Below, one piece after another: positions 5,538 to 28,850 of a stretch of DNA of 64,000 bases (within the stretch, counting starts at the first letter, position 1; each line of letters opens with the position of its first letter). Both the position numbers and the translations under genes were made by a program. The DNA lies in IMG/VR virus record IMGVR_UViG_3300044833_000114, positions 1-64,000 of that record; one strand, written 5' to 3'. The notes beneath the pieces were generated by a model. That model was not told the DNA's origin. It saw only the letters and a program-made list of their open reading frames with translations, and searched no databases. This DNA comes from a virus.

Positions 5538-5851
5538 GCACATTGAATTGGTATCAGGACGAAGCGAAGGGAACGGCCGTCTACAAGGATCAGACGAAGA
5601 TCGATCCGCTGACATACGCCGTGCTAGGCCTCGTGGGCGAGGCCGGAGAGCTGGCGAACAAGCTGAAGAAATTTCATCGCGCGAATCAGGAACCCGATCC
5701 TGCGGTCCTCGCCGACGAACTCGGTGACGTGTTGTGGTACGTGGCAGCGGTGGCTCGAGAGATCGGCTACAGCCTGTATTGGATTGCGAGGATGAATCTG
5801 CAAAAGCTCGCGAAGCGCGCCGCCTTAGGGGAGCTCAAACATCATGGCTAA
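5534..5851 (+). CDS. MazG-like nucleoside triphosphate pyrophosphohydrolase
   Basis: LGLVGEAGELANKLKK...DELGDVLWYVA...NLQKLAKR. Confidence 0.9.
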   Translation: MSTLNWYQDEAKGTAVYKDQTKIDPLTYAVLGLVGEAGELANKLKKFHRANQEPDPAVLADELGDVLWYVAAVAREIGYSLYWIARMNLQKLAKRAALGELKHHG

Positions 5852-6365
5852 TTTTGGGTCGATCGTAGAGTGGGTGCTCCGACTAGAAGACCGGACGCTC
5901 GCAGGAAAGACGGTGAACCTGGGTGATGGCGCCGGCCTGACGCGGTTCGGCATTACCACGAAGAATTGCCCCGGCATGCCTCGGGAGTTTTGGGAATCCA
6001 TGCCCACCGAACAGGCGATCGAGTTGGCGAAGCAATTCTACTACTCGAAGTATTGGCAGCCGATCCGCGGAACCTCGATTCTCAGCGATGAGGTTGCGGC
6101 GACTCTCATGTCGTTCGCGGTCAATGACGGGGTGTACTCCGCAGTCAAGCTGATCGAGGATGTCATCCACCAGGACCGCGACGGCGTCTTCGGTCCCAAC
6201 GACTTAGCAGCCGTAAACCAAGCAGAGCCTGAACAGCTGGCTGCTGCACTCAGGGACGAGCAGGAAGCGAGATACCAGGCGATCGAGGCCCGGATACCGT
6301 CGGACCAAAAATTCGACCGTGGGTGGCGCAAGAGGGCATACGTCCATTACCCAGACCTTCCGTGA
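5844..6365 (+). CDS. Endolysin, GH108 family with C-terminal peptidoglycan-binding region
   Basis: LE......GDGAGLTRFGIT, YYSKYW, FAVNDG, DGVFGP, FDRGWRKR. Confidence 0.85.
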   Translation: MANFGSIVEWVLRLEDRTLAGKTVNLGDGAGLTRFGITTKNCPGMPREFWESMPTEQAIELAKQFYYSKYWQPIRGTSILSDEVAATLMSFAVNDGVYSAVKLIEDVIHQDRDGVFGPNDLAAVNQAEPEQLAAALRDEQEARYQAIEARIPSDQKFDRGWRKRAYVHYPDLP

Positions 6366-6654: not shown

Positions 6655-6855
6655 ATGCCCGTATATGTCTATGAGTGTTCTGAAGGTCACCAAACAGATC
6701 GCGTGAAATCGATCAAAGTTTCTGATCGAGTTCTGAACAACGATGTTTGCGAAATCTGTGGAAAGAAAGCAAAACTTATTCCTTCCCGCACCAGTGCCCC
6801 GATCCTTGTTGGTCGCGGTTTTCATGCGAACGACTACGCGGCACCCACCAGGTAA
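6655..6855 (+). CDS. FmdB-family zinc-ribbon protein
   Basis: MPVYVYECSEGH...CEICG...GRGFHANDY. Confidence 0.85.
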   Translation: MPVYVYECSEGHQTDRVKSIKVSDRVLNNDVCEICGKKAKLIPSRTSAPILVGRGFHANDYAAPTR

Positions 6856-6881
6856 GTAAAACCCACCCATCGTTTGTTGAG

Positions 6882-6915
6882 GGGCGACCTTTCCCGAGGT
6901 CGCCCTTTTTCTTTT
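6882..6915 (+). terminator. Intrinsic terminator
   Basis: GGGCGACCT/AGGTCGCCC stem followed by TTTTTCTTTT. Confidence 0.75.
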
Positions 6916-6926
6916 GGAGAATCACC

Positions 6927-7172
6927 ATGAGTTTTTTCAAAGGCCTCGTTGACGATCGCATGAAAGACGTCAACCCCGTCCAGGTCATCACCATCGCTCT
7001 CGGATTGGCCATCATTGTGTGGGGGTCGCATGTTGCGTTTCACACGCACGCTATGCCGAACCTGAACGGAATCGGTGAAGCCCTTGGCGGGGCTGGTCTA
7101 GCGAACGCAGCGCACAAAGCGGAAGACATCATCGACAAGTTCAAGAAGCCAGTCGATCAGCCTAAAGGGTAA
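6927..7172 (+). CDS. Small membrane protein, possible holin
   Basis: RBS GGAG; hydrophobic helix and charged C-terminus; near the endolysin. Confidence 0.55.
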   Translation: MSFFKGLVDDRMKDVNPVQVITIALGLAIIVWGSHVAFHTHAMPNLNGIGEALGGAGLANAAHKAEDIIDKFKKPVDQPKG

Positions 7173-7177
7173 TCATC

Positions 7178-7369
7178 ATGCCGTTTGAAAGCCTCGCACA
7201 AGAAGGGTTCGCTCACGAGCACCCAGAGAAGTTCGGCGGCAAAGCTGTAGTCAAAGAGTTTGATCAAGCAACGAAGGGAAAGAAGCTCCCGAAGCGCAAG
7301 CGTCCGAAGCCAGAACCAGAACCTCCAAAGCCCTCAGTTCGTATGAGGCACCACGCGCGCCCGCGCTAA
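7178..7369 (+). CDS. Small basic phage protein (MPF-S-AQ type)
   Basis: MPFESLAQ...EFDQATKGKKLP pattern seen ahead of packaging genes. Confidence 0.65.
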   Translation: MPFESLAQEGFAHEHPEKFGGKAVVKEFDQATKGKKLPKRKRPKPEPEPPKPSVRMRHHARPR

Positions 7370-14900: not shown

Positions 14901-15932
14901 ATGTCTTTGGGCTTCCCTGCATCAAACGTCACCGGCAATTTGCCGCAGTCGACGGTCAAATTCTATGACAAAGATTTCATAGAAAATCTAAAGGCGGAAA
15001 CTCCTTTCGTGCGTTGCGCGGAACGGCGTGATCTGCCACTCAACAGCGGTAACCAGTTGGTTCTGTTCGAATACAACACGTTCGGCGCCAACACCGCGCA
15101 AGCGACGGAAGGCAACCCGGCCGCAGGTATCGCGACCTCTCTGGTCTCGAACACCTCGACCATCGGCGAATACGCGGATTACGCGTCGTTCAGCTCTCTG
15201 GCACTCGCCACCGCAATCGACGACACCCTCGGAAACGTGGCCAAGGAAATGTCTTACCGCCTCGGTCAGTCTCTGAACAACCTCGTACGCTTCAGCGTCG
15301 ACGGCGCCAGCGCCATCGATTCGTCTGTCCTCGTACAGTTGGCGGCTGCTTCCAGCTCCAGCTTCACCTCTCTGTCGATCGGCACCATTCGCGCCGCGAT
15401 CCAGTCTCTGGCTGGCCGCTCCGTGAAGCCGTTCATGCAAGCGAAAAAGCGTTTCGCTGGGATCATCCACCCATTTGCTTGGGGCGATGCGATCAACGAC
15501 ACCAGCAACAACAGCCCGGTGGATATTTTGAAGCACACCTCCGAAGGGCTGATGAAGATGGAAGAGCTGCCCAGCGCAGACCTCACGGAAGTTTTCGAAC
15601 TCCCGGGAACCGCGGTGGACTTCTTCCAGACAAACCTCGTGACCTTCACGTCGAACTACAAGACGACTGGCGCGACGGCCCTCAGCACGTACATCTTCGG
15701 GCGCGATGGAGTCATTGCCATCAATCTCGCGGGTCGTGGAGACACGGCGTACGGCGACGGGAACTATCGCGGTATCAAGTGCAACGTGGTCCAAAACGCT
15801 CCTGTGAGCGTCTCGGATCCCGAGGGCTTGATTCCCGGCTGGACCAGTTACAAAGTGCATTTCACTGTAACTCTTCCTCCCGACCCGACGCAGCGCGTGC
15901 GCATTATCCAGGCGCTCAGCGGAGTTAGCTAG
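14901..15932 (+). CDS. Major capsid protein (N4-gp56-like)
   Basis: 343 aa; DLPLNSGNQL, TEG, EYADY, IIHP, SDPEG...WTSYK patterns; position. Confidence 0.88.
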   Translation: MSLGFPASNVTGNLPQSTVKFYDKDFIENLKAETPFVRCAERRDLPLNSGNQLVLFEYNTFGANTAQATEGNPAAGIATSLVSNTSTIGEYADYASFSSLALATAIDDTLGNVAKEMSYRLGQSLNNLVRFSVDGASAIDSSVLVQLAAASSSSFTSLSIGTIRAAIQSLAGRSVKPFMQAKKRFAGIIHPFAWGDAINDTSNNSPVDILKHTSEGLMKMEELPSADLTEVFELPGTAVDFFQTNLVTFTSNYKTTGATALSTYIFGRDGVIAINLAGRGDTAYGDGNYRGIKCNVVQNAPVSVSDPEGLIPGWTSYKVHFTVTLPPDPTQRVRIIQALSGVS

Positions 15933-16029: not shown

Positions 16030-16389
16030 ATGTACCCAAAGAACACGTCTGAAACTCCCGCAATTCAACAGTTGTTTTCCAACTACAAGTATTGGGCGAA
16101 AAGGAGACAACTGGATTTTGATTTAAAGAAAGAACAATTCGAATTTCTCATCAAGCAAGAGTGCTTCTATTGTGGAGCACTGCCTTCTACTGTTTGTGTC
16201 AAACGCCACAGCTCGTGCACCTACAACGGCATCGATCGAAAAGATAATCGAATAGGGTACACAAGAGAGAACTGTGTTCCGTGTTGCTACACCCACAATC
16301 ACATGAAGTCAAATAAGACTTCTGAAGAATTTATCGCGGCTTGTCGGTCAGTTGTTGATCGAGCCGATGCTATGTCTGTAGTCAGCTAA
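16030..16389 (+). CDS. HNH-type endonuclease
   Basis: CFYCG...NGIDRKDNRIGYTRENCVPCC..HNHMK. Confidence 0.85.
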   Translation: MYPKNTSETPAIQQLFSNYKYWAKRRQLDFDLKKEQFEFLIKQECFYCGALPSTVCVKRHSSCTYNGIDRKDNRIGYTRENCVPCCYTHNHMKSNKTSEEFIAACRSVVDRADAMSVVS

Positions 16390-16563: not shown

Positions 16564-18408
16564 GTGTCGAAACCTAATCTGAGCATCGGACCAGCGAACA
16601 GCGATTCGAATGCTTTTGAGGTAGTTGGAAGAAACGGTCTCCCTGTTGCGTGGATAGACTCCCTCGGAAATCCCGGTGGGAATTTGGGCAGCCGCGCATC
16701 CTCCCCCACATTCTCTACCGGGGTGATCGACGCGACCAATCCAGCTTACGGTATGAAGTGGGACGCGAAGCAGTTGCAGACTGCTAACTTTACAAGCGGG
16801 TCTAATGTTGTCACCACCACGACCCCGACATTCTCTCCTACCGATGTCGGAAAGGCCTTTTGGGCATTCACAAAATGTGTCGGCGACGACCCTACTCCCA
16901 CGTTTACGCCGGCCATCGCTCGCACGACCATTACCGGATTCATTTCCCCGACACAAGTCACCGTGGGAGCTAATGCTAGTGCTCCTCCTGCGTTTGCAAA
17001 CACAGGTTGTATCATTTTCGGCACCCCGGATGATGCCGCTCTGGCCTTAGTGGAAGCAGCGGCTCTAGCCTCGCTAACTTGTCCATTTATTCTGTTTCCT
17101 CCGCTGGGTACGATTTTAGAATCACCGCACTTCATCCAGTCAGTTCCGTCGTGTAACGCCACTGCTCAAGCGAAAGGTGAAAACTTAATCGGATGGGGCC
17201 AAATGTTCGCTGGCTGGGGCAAGGGCGTTAGCATTCTCTTTTTGTCGCCCAACTTCGCTAACAACATCGCTGGCTGTACCGGAGGAAGTACAGGTAAGGG
17301 CTGCTTCTTTGGGCAGCAAGGCATGCATCTGCGTGGGTTCCAGTTTCAAGGTGGGGCGATGCTATCCACCGGGTTCGCCACACAGAAAAACATTGTGGAG
17401 TTCGCCAGCGACACACTTGTGGAAGATGTCGGTTTTTATATGTTCGGCGGCAATGATGTGAACGTCCAGTGCCTCGTCACGCCTATCGGGGAAGTGAACT
17501 TCACCAACGTCGCGACGATGGATTTCGGGACGGGGTGGGGCGTCAACACCGCTGGTGGTGGCAGTGGCGGCTTTTGGTCACTTGTTCACTCTTCTCTCGG
17601 CGGACACTGCAAAAACGGGCTGGTGACTCTGGGAACAGGCTCCATATTAAACTCTTATAGCTCATATTTTGCGTCGGGAAATTGCTCTCAGGCGAGTTGG
17701 ACTTTTATCACTTTGGGGCAAAATGCCACATGGAACTCCCACAGCGATCTGGTTTTTCAAGACGGGAGTGCCTTAGCGCAAGTAGGAATACAGCCGCAAA
17801 GTTCAACGGCAAGTACAGTCAACCTTTTTGGAACAACCATCGCGGTGCCTCCGGGATATGCCTATCTCAGCAACAATCCGGGTGTTGTTAATTGCCACGG
17901 ATGCGTACTACAAGGCCAAGTATTTTTGAACAATGCCGGGGCAGTATTCAACGACTTTGGTGGTGGGACCTTCTCTTCTTTTGCGGGAAGCGGACCCGTC
18001 AACGGCGTTCAATCGCTCATCGGCAACCAGCTTAACACTGCGGTAGCTTCGCGGAATACGGCACTGGGCACGACCACATTGCTTGCGTCTACAGCTAGTG
18101 TTGCTGGACAAAACTCGGTACTCACTCTTTCTCTTTACGCCTACGATTCAGCGGCTGGGGCAAGCTGCACCGGGAACACGACAGTTACTTGGACTATCAG
18201 TTACACCGACCCCACGAATACCGTGCAAACACAAACTGCGACGGAAACGATCACTACCAACGGCGGCGCAACAGGCGGCGATAAGCTACAGCAAACTTTC
18301 ACATTTCAGATTAAGGGCGGCACGGCAGTTACATATTCAACCGCATACACACCAGGCTCTGGTTGTGTCACGAACCCCAGTTACGCAGCACAATTGACAT
18401 TGAAGTAA
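16564..18408 (+). CDS. Tail spike / receptor-binding protein (beta-helix-like)
   Basis: G/T/S/N-rich; IDATNPAYG, GTPDDAAL head; C-terminal beta-sandwich; 13 Cys by my count. Confidence 0.7.
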   Translation: MSKPNLSIGPANSDSNAFEVVGRNGLPVAWIDSLGNPGGNLGSRASSPTFSTGVIDATNPAYGMKWDAKQLQTANFTSGSNVVTTTTPTFSPTDVGKAFWAFTKCVGDDPTPTFTPAIARTTITGFISPTQVTVGANASAPPAFANTGCIIFGTPDDAALALVEAAALASLTCPFILFPPLGTILESPHFIQSVPSCNATAQAKGENLIGWGQMFAGWGKGVSILFLSPNFANNIAGCTGGSTGKGCFFGQQGMHLRGFQFQGGAMLSTGFATQKNIVEFASDTLVEDVGFYMFGGNDVNVQCLVTPIGEVNFTNVATMDFGTGWGVNTAGGGSGGFWSLVHSSLGGHCKNGLVTLGTGSILNSYSSYFASGNCSQASWTFITLGQNATWNSHSDLVFQDGSALAQVGIQPQSSTASTVNLFGTTIAVPPGYAYLSNNPGVVNCHGCVLQGQVFLNNAGAVFNDFGGGTFSSFAGSGPVNGVQSLIGNQLNTAVASRNTALGTTTLLASTASVAGQNSVLTLSLYAYDSAAGASCTGNTTVTWTISYTDPTNTVQTQTATETITTNGGATGGDKLQQTFTFQIKGGTAVTYSTAYTPGSGCVTNPSYAAQLTLK

Positions 18409-18419
18409 AAGGGAGAGAC

Positions 18420-18701
18420 ATGAAAGCTATTCGTATTTACACACTGAAAGGCTGCCCCACTTGCGAGGAAGTTAAGAAGTTTATACAGGGCATCTCACTC
18501 GAATTTGAGGAGATAGAAATTGGCATCGACCCAATCGCCCAAGGCGGCATTAAAGCACTGGTCGGAAATGTGCAAGCGCCTATAACCATCTCGTTCTTTA
18601 CGAACGACGTAATCATGGGCAACAACGTGGAGAAGCTGAATGAACTGGCAGATTCTGTTAAGCAGCTTCGCGCAAGCGCATTTAACCCTACTGCTAAGTA
18701 A
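18420..18701 (+). CDS. Glutaredoxin/NrdH-like protein
   Basis: IRIYTLKGCPTCEEVKKFI...QAPI (CxxC plus cis-Pro loop); no signal peptide. Confidence 0.88.
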   Translation: MKAIRIYTLKGCPTCEEVKKFIQGISLEFEEIEIGIDPIAQGGIKALVGNVQAPITISFFTNDVIMGNNVEKLNELADSVKQLRASAFNPTAK

Positions 18702-18924
18702 GGGTACTATTTTTGACCGCTTCTGGCCTAAGCGTCTATCTGCACTTCGTAGTTGTCCAATGTGTTTGGGTTTCTGGACTGCTGGCATAGTCTCCATCTT
18801 CGTCGGCTGGAAGTTGTGGCTGGGCATCGCGGCCATCGGGCATCTCATTTACCTCATTCGAGAAAAATATCTACCTTGTGCGGCATGCTCGGCTCCCGAA
18901 CTGCCCGCCTTTAAAATTTCGTAA
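18640..18924 (+). CDS. DUF1360-like membrane protein with two CxxC motifs
   Basis: LLLSKGTIFDRF...SCPMCLGFW; C-terminal CAAC; about three hydrophobic helices. Confidence 0.7.
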   Translation: MNWQILLSSFAQAHLTLLLSKGTIFDRFWPKRLSALRSCPMCLGFWTAGIVSIFVGWKLWLGIAAIGHLIYLIREKYLPCAACSAPELPAFKIS

Positions 18925-18944: not shown

Positions 18945-20462
18945 GTGCCCACAACTTTTGTACAAACCAGCGCGGTGAATAATAACGTAATCGGTTTTCA
19001 GAGCAACGTCACTCTTGGAAATATTTTGATTGTGGCTTATGCGGATAGCACCGCCGCAACAGGTATAGCTGACACCATGGGCAATACCTGGACTCTGGTA
19101 GCACCTGGCGGCGCAAACGAAGCCGCAGTGTGGTGGGCAAAAGCGAAAAGTACCGGTCCATGTTCCCTTACTATTTCCGCCACTGTTGTTAATCCCGGAC
19201 TGGTGATTGCTGAATACGCGGGACCAAACGGCGCATCAGGTTCCAGTCCTTATCAAATTATTGGGGCAAACGCGACGGCAGTAAATGCAGGACCCGCAAC
19301 TGCGGTAGCTGGGGCGTTCACAGTAATTTATAACTTCGGTCAAAGCACGACTTATGTAAGCAGTTCTGGAGGCACGCCGAGACAATCGCCATTCGGTACC
19401 ACGCGTTTAAATCTAATAGACAACGTATCAGCCACAGGTTCTTACACGGAAACAGGAACTATGTCCGGAGGATCCACTAACCAGTTCGGCGGTTCTGCGA
19501 TAACGATTGGTCTTGGTTTGGCGCCGGCAGCGACTCCGACGTACAGCCCCGTTGCGGGCTCGTATGGATCATCGCAATCTGTGACCATTACTTGCACGAC
19601 TCCAAGCAGCACGATTACGTACACGACTGACGGAAGTACGCCGGTTCCCGGGTCACACGGCACTGTTTATTCCGGCCCGGTCTCCGTCACCACAACTCAA
19701 ACGATTAAAGCCGTTGCGTCAGCAACGAACTTTGTCAACAGCGCGGAAGCGGACGCCACGTACACAATCACTGGTGGAGGCACACCAGGATCCGCACCCA
19801 GTTCAGGGTTGCAGTCAGTTCAGTTTTTCGGTCGTCTCCCTAACGGACAAATTGCAGCGGTTGCCGTGGACACCCACGGAAACCTGGCGATCTCAGGAGG
19901 CACCGGCGGCGCGATCAACACCGTCGACGTTCTCGGCAACGGTCAAGCCACACCCGCGATGCTTTACGGTGCAACGCCGAGCAGGAAGGTAGTCGCCGTC
20001 GCAGTGGACGCGAACGGAAATCTTTGTGCCACGGTCGGAACAGGTGGCGGGAATCCGAATACCACAGTCGACATCGCGGCTTACGCAGTTCCTACACCGG
20101 TTCAGGTTGTGGGACGAGAACCGATAAGCGGCACTCTATACGCGGTTCCGTTGAACGCATCAAACGCGCTTTTCAATTCCGTGAATCCAGGCAGTACACC
20201 GACAGCATCTCTCGCAGCTCCGTTGGCGAAACCACGCAAGTTGATTTTGTGTGGACGCACACCGAGCGGACAGATCGTGGCGGTGGCTCTGGACGCATCC
20301 GGCCGGCTGTGCATCTCGGGCAGCGGGTCTAGTGGATCCGTCAATGTCGTCGACGTCTACAAGAACGGTCAGCCTCTCGGAATTCAAATCTTCGGCATCA
20401 ACGCTTCGGGAAGCTTGCAGGCAGTGCCTCTCGATGCAAACGGAAACCTATCACTCTCTTAA
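18945..20462 (+). CDS. Virion protein with chitobiase/Fn3-associated domain and five C-terminal repeats
   Basis: ATPTYSPVAGSY..SQSVTI...YTTDGSTP...YSGPV; five G..P.G...AV..D..GNL repeats. Confidence 0.75.
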   Translation: MPTTFVQTSAVNNNVIGFQSNVTLGNILIVAYADSTAATGIADTMGNTWTLVAPGGANEAAVWWAKAKSTGPCSLTISATVVNPGLVIAEYAGPNGASGSSPYQIIGANATAVNAGPATAVAGAFTVIYNFGQSTTYVSSSGGTPRQSPFGTTRLNLIDNVSATGSYTETGTMSGGSTNQFGGSAITIGLGLAPAATPTYSPVAGSYGSSQSVTITCTTPSSTITYTTDGSTPVPGSHGTVYSGPVSVTTTQTIKAVASATNFVNSAEADATYTITGGGTPGSAPSSGLQSVQFFGRLPNGQIAAVAVDTHGNLAISGGTGGAINTVDVLGNGQATPAMLYGATPSRKVVAVAVDANGNLCATVGTGGGNPNTTVDIAAYAVPTPVQVVGREPISGTLYAVPLNASNALFNSVNPGSTPTASLAAPLAKPRKLILCGRTPSGQIVAVALDASGRLCISGSGSSGSVNVVDVYKNGQPLGIQIFGINASGSLQAVPLDANGNLSLS

Positions 20463-20525
20463 GCAACGGCATGGGCATCCGAACACAGCAGCATGATGCC
20501 CACCGTCTTTCTAGGTAGTACCTCC

Positions 20526-20855
20526 ATGAAAATTCCGTACTCGTATTTGTTACTCGGTCCAGGTGCGCTCTTTGCTCTCGGATTCGTTTTGAACGCAGTC
20601 GTTATGGCTGCGAACCACGGACAGATGCCCGTCCTCATTCCGGGCGGCATCGCTGACGGCTGTCCACTCGACCCTCAAGACTTCCTGCACTCCTGTATGA
20701 CTAGCGCAACGCATCTGAAAATCATCGCAGATTGGGTTGTGGCGAAGAGCCTCGGGGTAGCAAGCCCAGGAGACTTCTTCTTGTGGGCTGGTGATTCGTC
20801 ATTCTGGCCTGCGTTAACAGCTTGGATAGCGCTGATGCTCAAAGGCAATCGCTAG
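20526..20855 (+). CDS. DUF5317-like membrane protein
   Basis: LNAVVMAANHGQMPV...H...THLKIIAD...SPGD. Confidence 0.75.
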   Translation: MKIPYSYLLLGPGALFALGFVLNAVVMAANHGQMPVLIPGGIADGCPLDPQDFLHSCMTSATHLKIIADWVVAKSLGVASPGDFFLWAGDSSFWPALTAWIALMLKGNR

Positions 20856-24540: not shown

Positions 24541-25482
24541 ATGGCTGCTACGAAATCTTTACAAGATTCGATCAATTGGATTCGTCCGTTCCTTAACTGG
24601 GCGAGCGTTACCATTGGCGTGAACAGTGAGCCGGCCGTGACCAGTGCGAATCAGGCGCTGCAAACGATCGTGGGTCCTCCCTTCGTCTGGCCTTGGAATC
24701 GAAACTACACCTACTTCTTCACCAACATTGGTCAGCAGGATTACAACGCTGCGATCTCGGGCTTCGGATTCCTCGAGAGCGCGTCGATCGAACTCTGCGG
24801 AAACATCACGTCCGTAGTTGCTAACGGCACCACAGCCGTATTCCAAGCCAAGAACGGATTCAACACGTTGCCGGACGCGGGATTGACTCAGACCGTCACG
24901 ATCTCTGGATGCACAACGTCTGGTTTGAACGGCACCTTCCCCCTCATTGCTTGTGACTCTAATTCTTTCACGATCAACACTTCCGTAACTGTCTCGGAAG
25001 TGGAAGTAGGCGCCACTGCTGTCGCCGGAAAAGCCACGCAGCTCACACTTCAGTGGGGCTCTCTGTCTGAAGAGCGCGCCACCGATCGTCCTACCTTCAT
25101 CGCGACTCAGGAGTCAGATGAGAGCGGAACGACCTTCACCTTCCGATTGATGCCGGTGCCGGACCAGCCATACCGCGTCAACCTGGTCTACCAGCAATCT
25201 CCCTCTCAATTCAATCCAAGCAACCTGAATCAGGCGTGGGGAATTCCCGATCAGCTTCAGTACATCTACAACTACTTCTTCGCTTTCTTCATGTTCGACT
25301 ACTTCGAGGATGCACGCGCGGCTCGCTATCGCCAGCTGGCTGTTGCTTCTCTCCTCGCTCGTCAGTCCGGACTCTCAACCACCGCCAGGAATCTTTTCCT
25401 CGGAAACTTCCTGCAGCTCATGAAAGAAGAGACAGCTTCGCAGTCTGAAGTAACCCAAGGGGATTCGGGTAGAGGAATTTAA
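24541..25482 (+). CDS. Head-tail adaptor, paralogue 2, with inserted beta domain
   Basis: EPAVTSAN..PWNR..QQDY..FRLMPVPD..IPD; insert ITSVV..VTISG...LNGTF. Confidence 0.7.
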   Translation: MAATKSLQDSINWIRPFLNWASVTIGVNSEPAVTSANQALQTIVGPPFVWPWNRNYTYFFTNIGQQDYNAAISGFGFLESASIELCGNITSVVANGTTAVFQAKNGFNTLPDAGLTQTVTISGCTTSGLNGTFPLIACDSNSFTINTSVTVSEVEVGATAVAGKATQLTLQWGSLSEERATDRPTFIATQESDESGTTFTFRLMPVPDQPYRVNLVYQQSPSQFNPSNLNQAWGIPDQLQYIYNYFFAFFMFDYFEDARAARYRQLAVASLLARQSGLSTTARNLFLGNFLQLMKEETASQSEVTQGDSGRGI

Positions 25483-28400
25483 TGGCTAACATTCTACAGG
25501 CCAACGGCGCGCAGCCACAGAAGCCGACGAAGTTTGTCAGCCTCTTCACCTCGCGGTTCATGTCTGGGTTGTTTACCAACCGCAGTCTACTGCGCGGCCC
25601 CCTGTCTTTCATCTATTCGGACTACTACCACGCCGGAGCCACAGACGCTCTGTGCGATGGCTTGAACTCCGAGGTGTCTATCCGGCAGACCATGATTCGC
25701 CGTCCCGGAAATCCTGTGTGGTGTTCTGTCCAGACGACGGAGGCCATCGACAGTTTCTACTCCTTCCACCAATCGAACGGCACGATCTCGGTGATTGCCG
25801 ACGGCACTGCGCACGTCTACGTTGCCACGCCCACAAGTTTGACATCGATCTTCACAAAGTCGGCCGCTGCAGGCGAAGCCACTTTCCAAGGAATCGACAC
25901 GACCCTCTACATCGCCGACGGCGTGGATACGGTGAAGTACATCCCTGGCACCACGAACCCGCAGACAGGCAAGCCTATGTGGAATTGGGGCGGTGCTGCG
26001 CCGACGGTAGCTCCGACTCTCGCGGTCACTCCGACAGGAACCTCCGGTATCGCTTGGGTCGCCTCCACTATGTGGACCACCATGGGGATGCTGTTCGACG
26101 CCAACGGAAACATTCAGCAGTTGACGAGCGTCAACGCTTCGGGAACGAACACGACTCAGCTGGGGACCACCGGAAACGGAGCACCCGCTTTCGTATCTGG
26201 ACCCGGCACCACAGTTACAGAAACCAGTGGAACACCAATCGTCTGGTCGAATCGGGGCCTCATCGGCTCCTGGTCTTCTGGCGCCTCTTATTACAATGCC
26301 TCGACAACTCCCGCCGGCGCAACCCTGAATCTTTCTTGCATCATCTATGACCCGATAACGAAAGCTTGCTACATGCAAATCAACGGAGGTGCTGGTGTTG
26401 TAAGAACCTCCGGCAATACGCGCCCGAATTTCCGCGCAGTGGTGGGTTGGAATCAGGACGGAGATGGAAACTGCAAATGGTTTTACCTCGGCGGTATCGG
26501 GGTTCCAGGGCTCTGGCAACCGTCACACACCTATCAGCTGCTTGGAAGCGTCAGCAACGACGATAGCAATTCGGGAATCGTTACTCCGACGACCGTGTCT
26601 CAGGCCGGGATCGGAACTGCGAATGGGACTCCGCTTTTTTGGTGGATAGCCACCAATACAGGTACATCCGGAACTTCCGGCTCGTACATTCCCACCTGGG
26701 CTACTACTCCAGGATTCCCCACCAACGACGGAACCAACATGATTTGGAACTGCGTCTGCAACGGGACGTGGCTCGCAAACACAAATTATTTTCCGTGGTC
26801 ATCGACCGCGACTTCCTTCGGGGCGATCAAGGACCCGAACGGAAACATCCAGATCTGCATCACAGCGAACGGCCCCAGCGCGCCTACGATACCCGCCACC
26901 TGGGCCACCACCTACGGCAACACCACGCTTGATGGCGTAGGAAGCGGCAACTCTTTCGTTGGCGTCACCTGGGCTTGCGTCGGGTCTTCGTTGTCCTGGG
27001 CGCCGAATACGCAGTGGTATCTACCCACCGGCGGATTCGTTCCTCCTCAGGCCTCGCAGGCGTACGGCGGCGCAACTTTGTCGCAAGCCGGGATCAACGA
27101 ATACGTCATCAACTCAGGCAAAAGTCAGACGCCGGGTCCACCGGCGTGGGGCGCGCTGCACACAAACACCACAGACGGAACTGTTACCTGGTACTCGGCT
27201 TCCGCCTTTACCGCGGCTGGCTTCTCCTTTACCACGGGATACGGCTGGTGCTACGCGTACAAAGCCCGCAAGCTCTCGGACAGCAGCGTTCTCACCGCGC
27301 CGCCTCTACAGATACCGGGCACAAACTCCCCCAATATCACCGGCCCTCTAGGACCCCCAACAGGCTGCGGGGATGGCACGGTCACTTCCGCATCTCCGGT
27401 CGCACAGATTGTCGGAGGAAATACCGGAGCACAAATTCTCATCACGATGGTCGGGTCGACTGATCCTCAGTTCGACACCATCTCCGTATATCGTTCCACG
27501 GATGGATTCGGTGCAGGAGGTCCTTATCTATTCCTGACGGACATTCCGATGCCTCCGATGCGCGGGGCCCTTCCCGGTATAGCCCAGATCATCGACTTCA
27601 TGCCGGACAAAGCGACTGCGCTACTTCCAGGATTAGATCCCCTCGAAGAGGCGCCCGTAGACAACGTCAACGATCCTCCCCCGGGACAATTCGGTTCCAC
27701 GCAGTTCGTTTCTTCTGGAGCGAACACTCCAACAATTCCTTTGGCCGGCACGGCGATCCAGGGGCAGGTGTATCACCAAGGACGTTTGTGGGCTTTCGTC
27801 GGAAACACGGTGTTTGCTTCTGGCGGACCCGATACGAATCCAGGCAACGGATTCACAGCGTGGCCTCCGATTAATGAATTTCCTTTCGACTCTCCAATTG
27901 TTCGGCTTCTTCCGACGGCTAACTCTCTGATCGTGTTCACGACGACAGACGTTTATCTGATCGGCGGCGGACCCGCGATCGCGGATTACTACTCTCAGTT
28001 ACTGGTCGGCGGTGTCGGCCTGCTTTCGTACAACGCCGTCACCGTAATGCTGGGACTTCCCTATCTGTTCACATCCGATCGCCAGTACATAACGATCGAT
28101 CCGAGCGGCGGCTTCACGCGTATCGGTCACCCGATCGGCGACAAACTCACCCAGTACAACCCCACGGCGGTCTACACGACCTACCACAGCTATGGAGACC
28201 TGGAGCACGCCCTGTTCCTGACCGACGGTTCAAGTGAGTGGTACCGTTGCGACCCCAACCCGACACCGGACAGCCAAATGACAGGCCCGATCTGGAGTCC
28301 GAGAGCGACAATCGCTGGCGGATTCAAGGCCGTTCAATCCATCGTGGTTAGCCCGGGGACTACGAAACTTCTCATCGGCCCCGCGGGCGCTGGAAATATT

Positions 28401-28850
28401 CTCGCGAGAGACTCGACCTTCACAAACTTCCAAGACAACGGGAGCGCGTATTCGTCGTTCTTCGTGGCGGGGAACATCGTGCTGGCTCAAGCCGGACAGA
28501 TGGCTCAGCTGGATTTCATCGAAGCTGATTTCGTTCAGGTCGGGACACAAGCGACGGTCTCAGTGATGTTCGACGAACTGAGTCCAACGAACGGAGCATC
28601 GTTCGAGAAAATTTCGAATGAGTTTGTCTCTGACCCTCCGAAACTATTCGGACCTACCGGAATACCGAAGACGATGTGGATGAACAGATACTTTTTTGGA
28701 CAAACCACACCAGGTAACGGCGGAACACAAGAACCTATTCCCGCATGGTGCAAAAGCCTGCAGCTCAAAGTCGATTTCGGAAACACTGACACAATTCAAA
28801 ACGAACTGTTGGCGTTCACGATTTTCGGCGCCCTTTACCAGGAGAAATAA
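25482..28850 (+). CDS. Tail nozzle-like protein with carbohydrate-binding-like repeats
   Basis: IRRPG start, YHQGRLW..VFASG propeller-like motifs; repeated W..T.Y / SG...P.W / T.DG.V.W. Confidence 0.7.
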   Translation: MANILQANGAQPQKPTKFVSLFTSRFMSGLFTNRSLLRGPLSFIYSDYYHAGATDALCDGLNSEVSIRQTMIRRPGNPVWCSVQTTEAIDSFYSFHQSNGTISVIADGTAHVYVATPTSLTSIFTKSAAAGEATFQGIDTTLYIADGVDTVKYIPGTTNPQTGKPMWNWGGAAPTVAPTLAVTPTGTSGIAWVASTMWTTMGMLFDANGNIQQLTSVNASGTNTTQLGTTGNGAPAFVSGPGTTVTETSGTPIVWSNRGLIGSWSSGASYYNASTTPAGATLNLSCIIYDPITKACYMQINGGAGVVRTSGNTRPNFRAVVGWNQDGDGNCKWFYLGGIGVPGLWQPSHTYQLLGSVSNDDSNSGIVTPTTVSQAGIGTANGTPLFWWIATNTGTSGTSGSYIPTWATTPGFPTNDGTNMIWNCVCNGTWLANTNYFPWSSTATSFGAIKDPNGNIQICITANGPSAPTIPATWATTYGNTTLDGVGSGNSFVGVTWACVGSSLSWAPNTQWYLPTGGFVPPQASQAYGGATLSQAGINEYVINSGKSQTPGPPAWGALHTNTTDGTVTWYSASAFTAAGFSFTTGYGWCYAYKARKLSDSSVLTAPPLQIPGTNSPNITGPLGPPTGCGDGTVTSASPVAQIVGGNTGAQILITMVGSTDPQFDTISVYRSTDGFGAGGPYLFLTDIPMPPMRGALPGIAQIIDFMPDKATALLPGLDPLEEAPVDNVNDPPPGQFGSTQFVSSGANTPTIPLAGTAIQGQVYHQGRLWAFVGNTVFASGGPDTNPGNGFTAWPPINEFPFDSPIVRLLPTANSLIVFTTTDVYLIGGGPAIADYYSQLLVGGVGLLSYNAVTVMLGLPYLFTSDRQYITIDPSGGFTRIGHPIGDKLTQYNPTAVYTTYHSYGDLEHALFLTDGSSEWYRCDPNPTPDSQMTGPIWSPRATIAGGFKAVQSIVVSPGTTKLLIGPAGAGNILARDSTFTNFQDNGSAYSSFFVAGNIVLAQAGQMAQLDFIEADFVQVGTQATVSVMFDELSPTNGASFEKISNEFVSDPPKLFGPTGIPKTMWMNRYFFGQTTPGNGGTQEPIPAWCKSLQLKVDFGNTDTIQNELLAFTIFGALYQEK

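Follow-up and report, generated by a model that had tools for sequence, protein, structure and literature searches.

A glutaredoxin-like gene and an overlapping gene for a small membrane protein with two CxxC motifs were characterized computationally in IMG/VR virus record IMGVR_UViG_3300044833_000114, an uncultured soil phage of 93,931 bp (completeness 100% by CheckV). The window referred to below is the first 64 kb of this record. The two proteins are an obligately linked pair. Profile comparisons indicate that the membrane protein is a divergent member of the DUF1360 family, belonging to a subfamily that gained a C-terminal LPCxxC motif, and the two proteins probably exchange disulfides. 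The genes concerned are listed here.

16564-18408, plus strand: tail spike/fibre-like protein, 614 residues, 13 Cys (2.1%), no signal peptide, candidate client (open reading frame and Cys count)
18420-18701, plus strand: glutaredoxin-like protein, 93 residues, CPTC encoded at 18453-18464, predicted to be cytoplasmic (Pfam PF00462)
18640-18701, plus strand: overlap of the two genes, 62 nt, +1 frame
18640-18924, plus strand: membrane protein, divergent DUF1360 member, 94 residues, CPMC encoded at 18754-18765 and CAAC at 18877-18888
18945-20462, plus strand: second fibre-like protein, 505 residues, 5 Cys (CHB_HEX_C/Fn3-associated domain, Pfam PF13290, E 3.4e-13)

The spike stop codon lies 11 nt before the glutaredoxin start, and the second fibre gene begins 20 nt after the membrane protein stop. 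An earlier note on this DNA had placed the pair between virion genes and had described a CPTC glutaredoxin without a signal peptide overlapping a 94-residue membrane protein with CPMC and CAAC. The coordinates, motifs, 62-nt overlap and genomic position all hold. The glutaredoxin starts at an ATG behind AGGGAGAG, and the membrane protein starts at an ATG behind GGAGAAG, 62 nt within the glutaredoxin gene and in the +1 frame.

Linkage and identity of the two proteins

Hidden Markov models (HMMs) of the partner glutaredoxin (alignment A3) and of the two-CxxC protein (alignment A4) were compared with all open reading frames (ORFs) of 157 loci, given below by their L numbers, and of the window. 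Each of the 25 glutaredoxin hits was in a locus that also encodes a two-CxxC protein; the glutaredoxin gene lies immediately upstream of the two-CxxC gene and overlaps it, with L107 as the exception. L100, which begins inside the gene, was the sole two-CxxC locus without a glutaredoxin hit. The overlap measured 38-120 nt or more in all other pair loci except L107. The partner glutaredoxin was absent from about 130 locus entries with one-CxxC DUF1360 proteins (within flanks of 3-6 kb). The second, C-terminal CxxC and the glutaredoxin appear together, as a correlated gain. A survey seeded with portal proteins added three pair loci, for a total of 22 distinct contigs, and when the glutaredoxin served as the only query, every match lay in a pair-bearing contig except one unrelated stand-alone glutaredoxin. 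Across 20 loci the pairwise identities of the two proteins co-vary (Mantel r 0.89, p<=0.0005), with both falling to about 20%. The linkage is preserved through deep divergence and transfer between phage backbones, as are the overlap and both Cys pairs. Natural fusions of the two proteins were not found in a search for longer homologues with profile A2, which is weak evidence.

The coding overlap also bears on the protein sequences. The stretch that encodes the C-terminal tail of the glutaredoxin also encodes, in the other frame, a conserved AQxHLTLLL helix of the membrane protein, and the S-A-x-N-P sequence of this tail appears conserved for that reason. At L107 (1488-1970), an HNH homing endonuclease gene is inserted exactly between the glutaredoxin and its membrane partner. 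The related locus L108 has the same kind of HNH gene upstream, and its pair overlaps. It looks as if a mobile endonuclease has split a translationally coupled pair at L107.

The glutaredoxin matches Pfam PF00462 with 34.4 bits (cut-off 22.9, E 2.5e-8) and is a member of that family, as are L001 and other orthologues, which also match PF00462. It has no hydrophobic stretch at the N-terminus and no signal peptide. The dithiol CPTC (residues 12-15) directly follows the first beta strand; C12, P13 and C15 are invariant in A3, and P54 occupies the conserved cis-Pro-type position. The best NCBIfam match is to YruB-family glutaredoxin-like proteins (TIGR02196), below cut-off (36 vs 88.6 bits); no NCBIfam equivalog cut-off was reached, and all scores were far below. 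Profile matches in the PDB are small glutaredoxin-like proteins (7c10, 3zij and 3ic4). Across the partner glutaredoxins the active-site motifs are CPHC, CPTC, CVHC, CPFC and CPYC, with CPHC in 16 of 21. The partner ORF at L001 (5330-5938) encodes 202 residues, including an N-terminal extension of about 110 residues before the CPHC domain.

For the membrane protein, a word-indexed search recovered six relatives of 46-54% identity, and a profile search of 1.8 billion representatives recovered 110 clusters at E<=1e-3, which establishes the ORF as a real conserved gene. Approximately 45 of these clusters carry both motifs, C-x-x-C-x-G-F-W and (K/R)-x-LPCxxC, and the short tail after LPCxxC often ends in aromatic, basic and aliphatic residues. 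In the window protein, the main hydrophobic segment begins at CPMC, and LPCAAC comes just after a hydrophobic hairpin. C39, C42, W46, C80 and C83 are the sole invariant residues among 33 diverse members (A4). His14 and His68 were considered as metal or haem ligands and ruled out, being invariant only among close relatives and not across the wider subfamily. Searches of prokaryote genomes found no two-CxxC relatives.

The remaining clusters have the first CxxC only, and those fetched match Pfam DUF1360 (PF07098) above cut-off and also phrog_781. The window protein itself has no Pfam, PHROG or NCBIfam match (Pfam to E<=10); PF07098 in particular gave none at E<=10 and none in a six-frame search of the genome, and the L001 orthologue, at 14.6 bits, stays below the cut-off of 21. 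Its assignment to DUF1360 is made because of the profile-profile match and the shared motif. In hhalign, the 33 two-CxxC proteins (A4) and 22 one-CxxC proteins (A7), 19 of which match PF07098 (E<=0.01), align over 81 columns with a probability of 99.4% and an E value of 5.4e-22. The two Cys and the Trp of CxxC-x-G-x-W are invariant in both sets (C39, C42 and W46 in A4; C43, C46 and W50 in A7). The homology extends from helix 1 through the CxxC-x-G-F-W motif to the hydrophobic hairpin of DUF1360 (PF07098; PHROG 781), and one-CxxC members, too, are often encoded within phage structural modules. The window subfamily differs in its added C-terminal LPCxxC and short aromatic-basic tail and in its obligate glutaredoxin; the surveyed one-CxxC members have neither. 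DUF1360 is a family without an assigned function, and the literature searched mentions it only twice, in passing.

Topology was predicted from the distribution of Lys and Arg. Averaged over the 33 sequences, the loop that precedes the first CxxC has 4.2 of these residues and the C-tail has 4.6, whereas the N-terminus has 0.1 and the hairpin turn also 0.1. The positive-inside rule predicts a cytoplasmic location for both CxxC motifs, whether or not helix 1 spans the membrane, and the glutaredoxin is predicted to be cytoplasmic too. The cytoplasmic orientation that the earlier note had proposed stands as a prediction, from these counts and from a glutaredoxin that lacks a signal peptide. An AlphaFold2 model of the membrane protein (13-sequence alignment) has a low pLDDT (predicted local distance difference test) of 63.7, with helices at residues 3-21, 30-37, 40-55 and 57-77. 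Together with the hydropathy profile, these low-confidence helices allow at most three membrane segments. In this model, again with low confidence, the first CxxC occupies the opening turn of a helix, which is where redox-active CxxC motifs are found.

Cysteine-rich tail spikes beside the pair

Large spike or fibre genes directly precede the pair, or flank it, in most informative loci. The pair-adjacent spikes are rich in Cys: 13 in the window, 19 in L001, 20 in L104, 17 in L094, 24 in L098, 19 and 22 in L097, 16 and 19 in L014/L015, 12 in L013 and 12 in L101. This amounts to 1.5-3.8% of residues, compared with 0.0-0.6% in portals, capsids and scaffolds of the same loci; portals and capsids by themselves are also given as 0.3-0.6%. 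The window spike has no N-terminal hydrophobic segment and no Pfam or PHROG match, and it is 23-27% identical to the pair-adjacent Cys-rich spikes of L001, L098 and L094 and to a signal-peptide-bearing protein of L185. An AlphaFold2 model from a 6-sequence alignment is all-beta and unreliable (pLDDT 49.1).

The earlier note had counted about 13 Cys in the spike and in a putative nozzle and had treated both as Cys-rich. Both proteins have exactly 13; in the 1122-residue protein (25482-28850; no PHROG match), this is 1.2%, ordinary for this genome, and the notion of a Cys-rich nozzle was discarded.

The spikes are only 23-30% identical to one another, and alignments show Cys residues kept, or appearing jointly, in close pairs. 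C173, C238, C247 and C535 of the window spike are invariant (alignment A6); its close pairs are C173/C197, C238/C247 and C444/C447. In the L001 spike, 18 of 19 Cys fall into nine nearest-neighbour pairs. We infer from this pattern that the spike cysteines behave like disulfide partners; the CxxC pairs could also bind metal. Internal CxxC motifs occur in several spikes (window residues 444-447, L001 residues 133-136 and 428-431, L013 residues 454-457, and residues 433-436 of the second L015 spike). In a trimer, such a motif could bind metal on the axis instead of forming a disulfide.

Cys-rich homologues were also found in loci without the pair, and these bear classical Sec signal peptides, whereas the pair-adjacent spikes have none.

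L185, 5000-7000, minus strand: 666 residues, 24 Cys, Sec signal peptide, 40% identical to the L098 spike
L222, 3665-6925: 1086 residues, 34 Cys, Sec signal peptide
L210, 649-5760: 1703 residues, 67 Cys, Sec signal peptide

The L185 protein shares conserved Cys columns with the window spike. The same Cys framework is thus found either behind an export signal or, lacking one, next to the pair. Very large proteins with a Sec signal and extreme Cys content recur in the relatives, some of them spike homologues; L101 (4738-6951) and L001 (6002-6943) are further sites of this kind.

The pair therefore follows the Cys-rich spike cassette and not the phage backbone: the closest backbone relatives, L174 and L226 (portals 81-83% identical, same gene order), have spikes of 0.5-0.6% Cys in the same slot and no pair, and in L162 both a large spike and the pair are missing.

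A putative disulfide relay and its alternatives

These observations lead us to propose that the glutaredoxin and the two-CxxC protein would act as a thiol-disulfide relay that is anchored in the host inner membrane, works on its cytoplasmic face and is made late in infection together with the tail spikes. A membrane electron acceptor would keep the ancestral CxxC-x-G-x-W motif, at the cytoplasmic end of the hairpin, in the oxidized state. A quinone in this role is a mere guess, taken from DsbB and VKOR. The disulfide would then pass to the adjacent C-terminal LPCxxC, the contact for the dithiol glutaredoxin, which would oxidize the soluble glutaredoxin as the diffusible arm of the relay. The glutaredoxin, in turn, would introduce or reshuffle disulfides in the signal-less, Cys-rich spikes before lysis. 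Exchange between the two proteins is supported most strongly by the strict correlation of the second CxxC with the glutaredoxin. The full sequence of steps, in which the pair forms the spike disulfides, is more tentative and has somewhat less than an even chance of being correct.

That electrons flow in the oxidizing direction, that a quinone receives them and that the spike is the client is all pure inference. An oxidizing direction is favoured because most partner glutaredoxins bear CPHC, which is the dipeptide of DsbA and favours a more oxidizing protein in DsbA and in thioredoxin variants. It is also favoured because the genes are co-transcribed with signal-less spikes whose Cys resemble disulfide pairs, because the exported homologues manage without the pair, and because a reducing cytoplasm needs no extra reductant.

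Several observations weigh against this oxidative relay. No oxidant, quinone site or flavin domain was identified; Erv1/ALR (PF04777) had no match in the genome, but control genomes gave none either, so this is uninformative. The window glutaredoxin has CPTC and not CPHC, and its nearest solved relatives are the small YruB/NrdH-type glutaredoxin-like proteins, which are known as reductants. The window spike has an odd number of Cys (13), and both AlphaFold models are of low confidence, so no Cys-Cys distances were obtained. The co-occurrence with Cys-rich tails that the earlier note had named as a check is seen in most informative loci and breaks down in others. In L182 and L188 the pair lies between terminase and portal genes, beside a fibre of 0.2% Cys or nothing, and the near-complete L188 genome encodes moderately Cys-containing tail proteins 20 kb from the pair. 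L017 has the pair without a spike nearby. The near-complete L016 genome has one spike with 8 Cys (0.9%), its other virion proteins being Cys-poor. A search of four pair-bearing genomes for spike homologues at other positions found none. Marine phages carry their one-CxxC DUF1360 genes in head modules among Cys-poor proteins (median 0.46%). The pair loci share ancestry, and the linkage counts are not phylogenetically independent. The plan of CxxC, hydrophobic hairpin and CxxC is also that of LITAF-type zinc ribbons.

This last point underlies a serious rival, by analogy, in which both CxxC motifs bind one structural zinc and the protein is a membrane anchor or scaffold; the glutaredoxin would at most guard or switch the Zn-thiolate site, as in redox switches of the RsrA/Hsp33 type. 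A Zn(Cys)4 site has to be taken seriously because the plan is the same as in LITAF, although we consider it unlikely. The topology of LITAF is covered in PMC5142333. CPxC is a typical zinc-knuckle motif, and here CPxC and PCxxC flank about 35 hydrophobic residues. With both ends of the hairpin predicted to be cytoplasmic, the four Cys would have to be near one another. The nearest named clusters in the ESM Atlas are LITAF-like zinc ribbons, partly viral, at 0.85-0.88, which is below its reliability mark; no zf-LITAF-like match appeared in Pfam at E<=10. The wider DUF1360 family, however, has the first CxxC only, so this Cys pair has a role without a four-Cys site, and a purely structural role would leave unexplained why the second CxxC is so strictly coupled to a dithiol glutaredoxin. 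The position of the first CxxC in the low-confidence AlphaFold2 model is likewise redox-like.

Electrons might instead flow the other way, from host glutathione or thioredoxin reductase through the glutaredoxin to the membrane protein. Such a relay could carry reducing power into or across the membrane, in the manner of CcdA/DsbD, or sense redox state to time lysis or superinfection exclusion. A reductive relay from cytoplasm to membrane is established for thioredoxin and DsbD/CcdA, small membrane proteins beside receptor-binding genes are often exclusion or lysis factors, and both the solved relatives of the glutaredoxin and the pair loci without Cys-rich neighbours would fit. The predicted location of both CxxC motifs is at the cytoplasmic interface and not mid-membrane, however, and an endolysin and a holin candidate are encoded 12 kb away. 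The pair also tracks the Cys-rich signal-less spikes and is missing from close relatives with Cys-poor spikes, and the prevalence of CPHC argues for the opposite direction. A reductive or regulatory relay is judged quite improbable.

Glutaredoxin and NrdH genes are common in phages, and an ordinary electron donor to ribonucleotide reductase (RNR), like T4 NrdC or NrdH, could by chance lie beside an unrelated small membrane gene. Searches by tblastn with the glutaredoxin matched, among others, NrdH-like glutaredoxins of mycobacteriophages; that of phage Anthony lies in the replication block with an RNR gene nearby. The earlier note had seen no RNR in the window, and this extends to the whole 93,931-bp record, in which RNR of class I, II or III gave no match, with no nrd genes in the part beyond the window; phosphoadenosine phosphosulfate (PAPS) reductase and thioredoxin also gave no match in the whole record. 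Given a complete-rated 94-kb record without RNR, a gene 11 nt after a spike gene in a late structural operon, and strict overlapping linkage to the two-CxxC gene in 22 contigs, the RNR-donor reading is largely refuted and was rejected.

A holin function of the membrane protein was also rejected as a main idea; the endolysin gene and a conserved gene for a single-transmembrane protein lie 12 kb upstream. The latter, the holin candidate, is a protein of about 81 residues encoded at approximately 6925-7172 (within the ORF 6747-7172), about 550 nt after the endolysin gene. L185 has a look-alike of it at 7110-7361. The pair belongs to a block of closely spaced plus-strand genes, bounded by the major capsid gene and a conserved gene for a 244-residue protein. 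Other genes in the window are given here.

5844-6365: endolysin (phrog_315)
14901-15932: major capsid gene (phrog_1357)
16030-16389, plus strand: HNH endonuclease, first gene of the block
20493-20855: DUF5317 membrane protein, 120 residues, after the second fibre gene (Pfam match, E 3.6e-9)

The capsid gene is apparently split by an inserted ORF of about 170 residues in several close relatives (L174, 16182-17362; L162, 14406-16462; L166, 12396-13289; L188, 13832-15064). This ORF bears a LAGLIDADG-like motif (GxxDGEG) and may therefore be a homing endonuclease carried by an intron or intein. In the window the capsid gene is unsplit, and the HNH gene directly follows it.

Relation to known systems and significance

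The earlier note had pictured an inverted, miniature version of DsbA/DsbB. The gene linkage and the predicted cytoplasmic side agree with this picture; homology to DsbB or VKOR does not, as no Pfam match was found (PF02600, PF07884) and the relative is DUF1360 instead. The likeness to DsbA-DsbB and VKOR lies in the pairing of a soluble CxxC protein of thioredoxin fold with a small membrane protein, and in a membrane CxxC at the start of a transmembrane helix with a second Cys pair that would contact the soluble partner. W46 lies one helical turn after the membrane CxxC, as does Tyr139 in human VKORC1, and CPHC in most partner glutaredoxins is the dipeptide of DsbA. Unlike DsbB and VKOR, which have 4-5 transmembrane helices and periplasmic Cys pairs, the present protein has about 3 helices in 94 residues and Cys pairs predicted to be cytoplasmic. 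Its partner has a glutaredoxin fold and not that of DsbA, and the relay here is a predicted one.

The glutaredoxin resembles YruB (TIGR02196), NrdH (TIGR02194), the 7c10, 3zij and 3ic4 proteins and T4 NrdC in fold, in size, in the dithiol CxxC at the end of strand 1 and in the cis-Pro-type P54. It differs in having no RNR or peroxiredoxin context and in lying in a late structural operon with an overlapping membrane partner gene. LITAF/SIMPLE (PF10601) shares the order of CxxC, membrane-embedded stretch and CxxC, with both knuckles cytoplasmic. There is no detectable sequence similarity to LITAF, however, and the hydrophobic part here is longer (about 35 residues) and preceded by an extra N-terminal helix; the parent family here has one CxxC, and LITAF is not known to have a glutaredoxin partner.

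The poxvirus E10R-A2.5L-G4L route is comparable to the putative relay, which would likewise be a viral route to virion disulfides on the cytoplasmic side, with a membrane-associated CxxC upstream and a glutaredoxin- or thioredoxin-like last carrier. African swine fever virus and mimivirus have Erv1-type oxidases related to this pathway. The poxvirus route uses an Erv1/ALR flavin oxidase and three components, whereas here the host is bacterial and there are two components, the membrane one from DUF1360.

Disulfide-stapled phage particles were repeatedly found by cryo-electron microscopy in 2024-2026, though virions assemble in a reducing cytoplasm. The poxvirus cytoplasmic disulfide pathway is the known viral case, and no thiol-oxidoreductase machinery has been described in phages (PMC13576161, 2026). 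Whether host- or phage-encoded oxidoreductases catalyse phage disulfides has been called an open question (bioRxiv 10.64898/2026.07.24.740622). New here is the glutaredoxin-coupled two-CxxC subfamily of DUF1360, which gives a redox partner and a concrete, testable mechanism. It is possible, although doubtful at present, that DUF1360 is a new class of membrane thiol oxidase acting on the cytoplasmic face, and that its two-CxxC form is the first phage machinery for virion disulfides. This would be a functional counterpart of DsbB-DsbA and of poxvirus E10R-G4L, built from unrelated parts.

The module is small (93 and 94 codons), conserved and physically tied to Cys-rich spikes, and is therefore directly testable in Escherichia coli. 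If the membrane protein is a zinc-anchored scaffold or part of a reductive switch, the pair would still be an uncharacterized, conserved partner system of tail-spike genes. If it is an oxidase, this would be the first function for DUF1360, a family widespread in phages and bacteria. It would also represent a third, non-homologous solution to membrane-driven disulfide generation and provide a compact tool for producing disulfide-bonded proteins in the bacterial cytoplasm.

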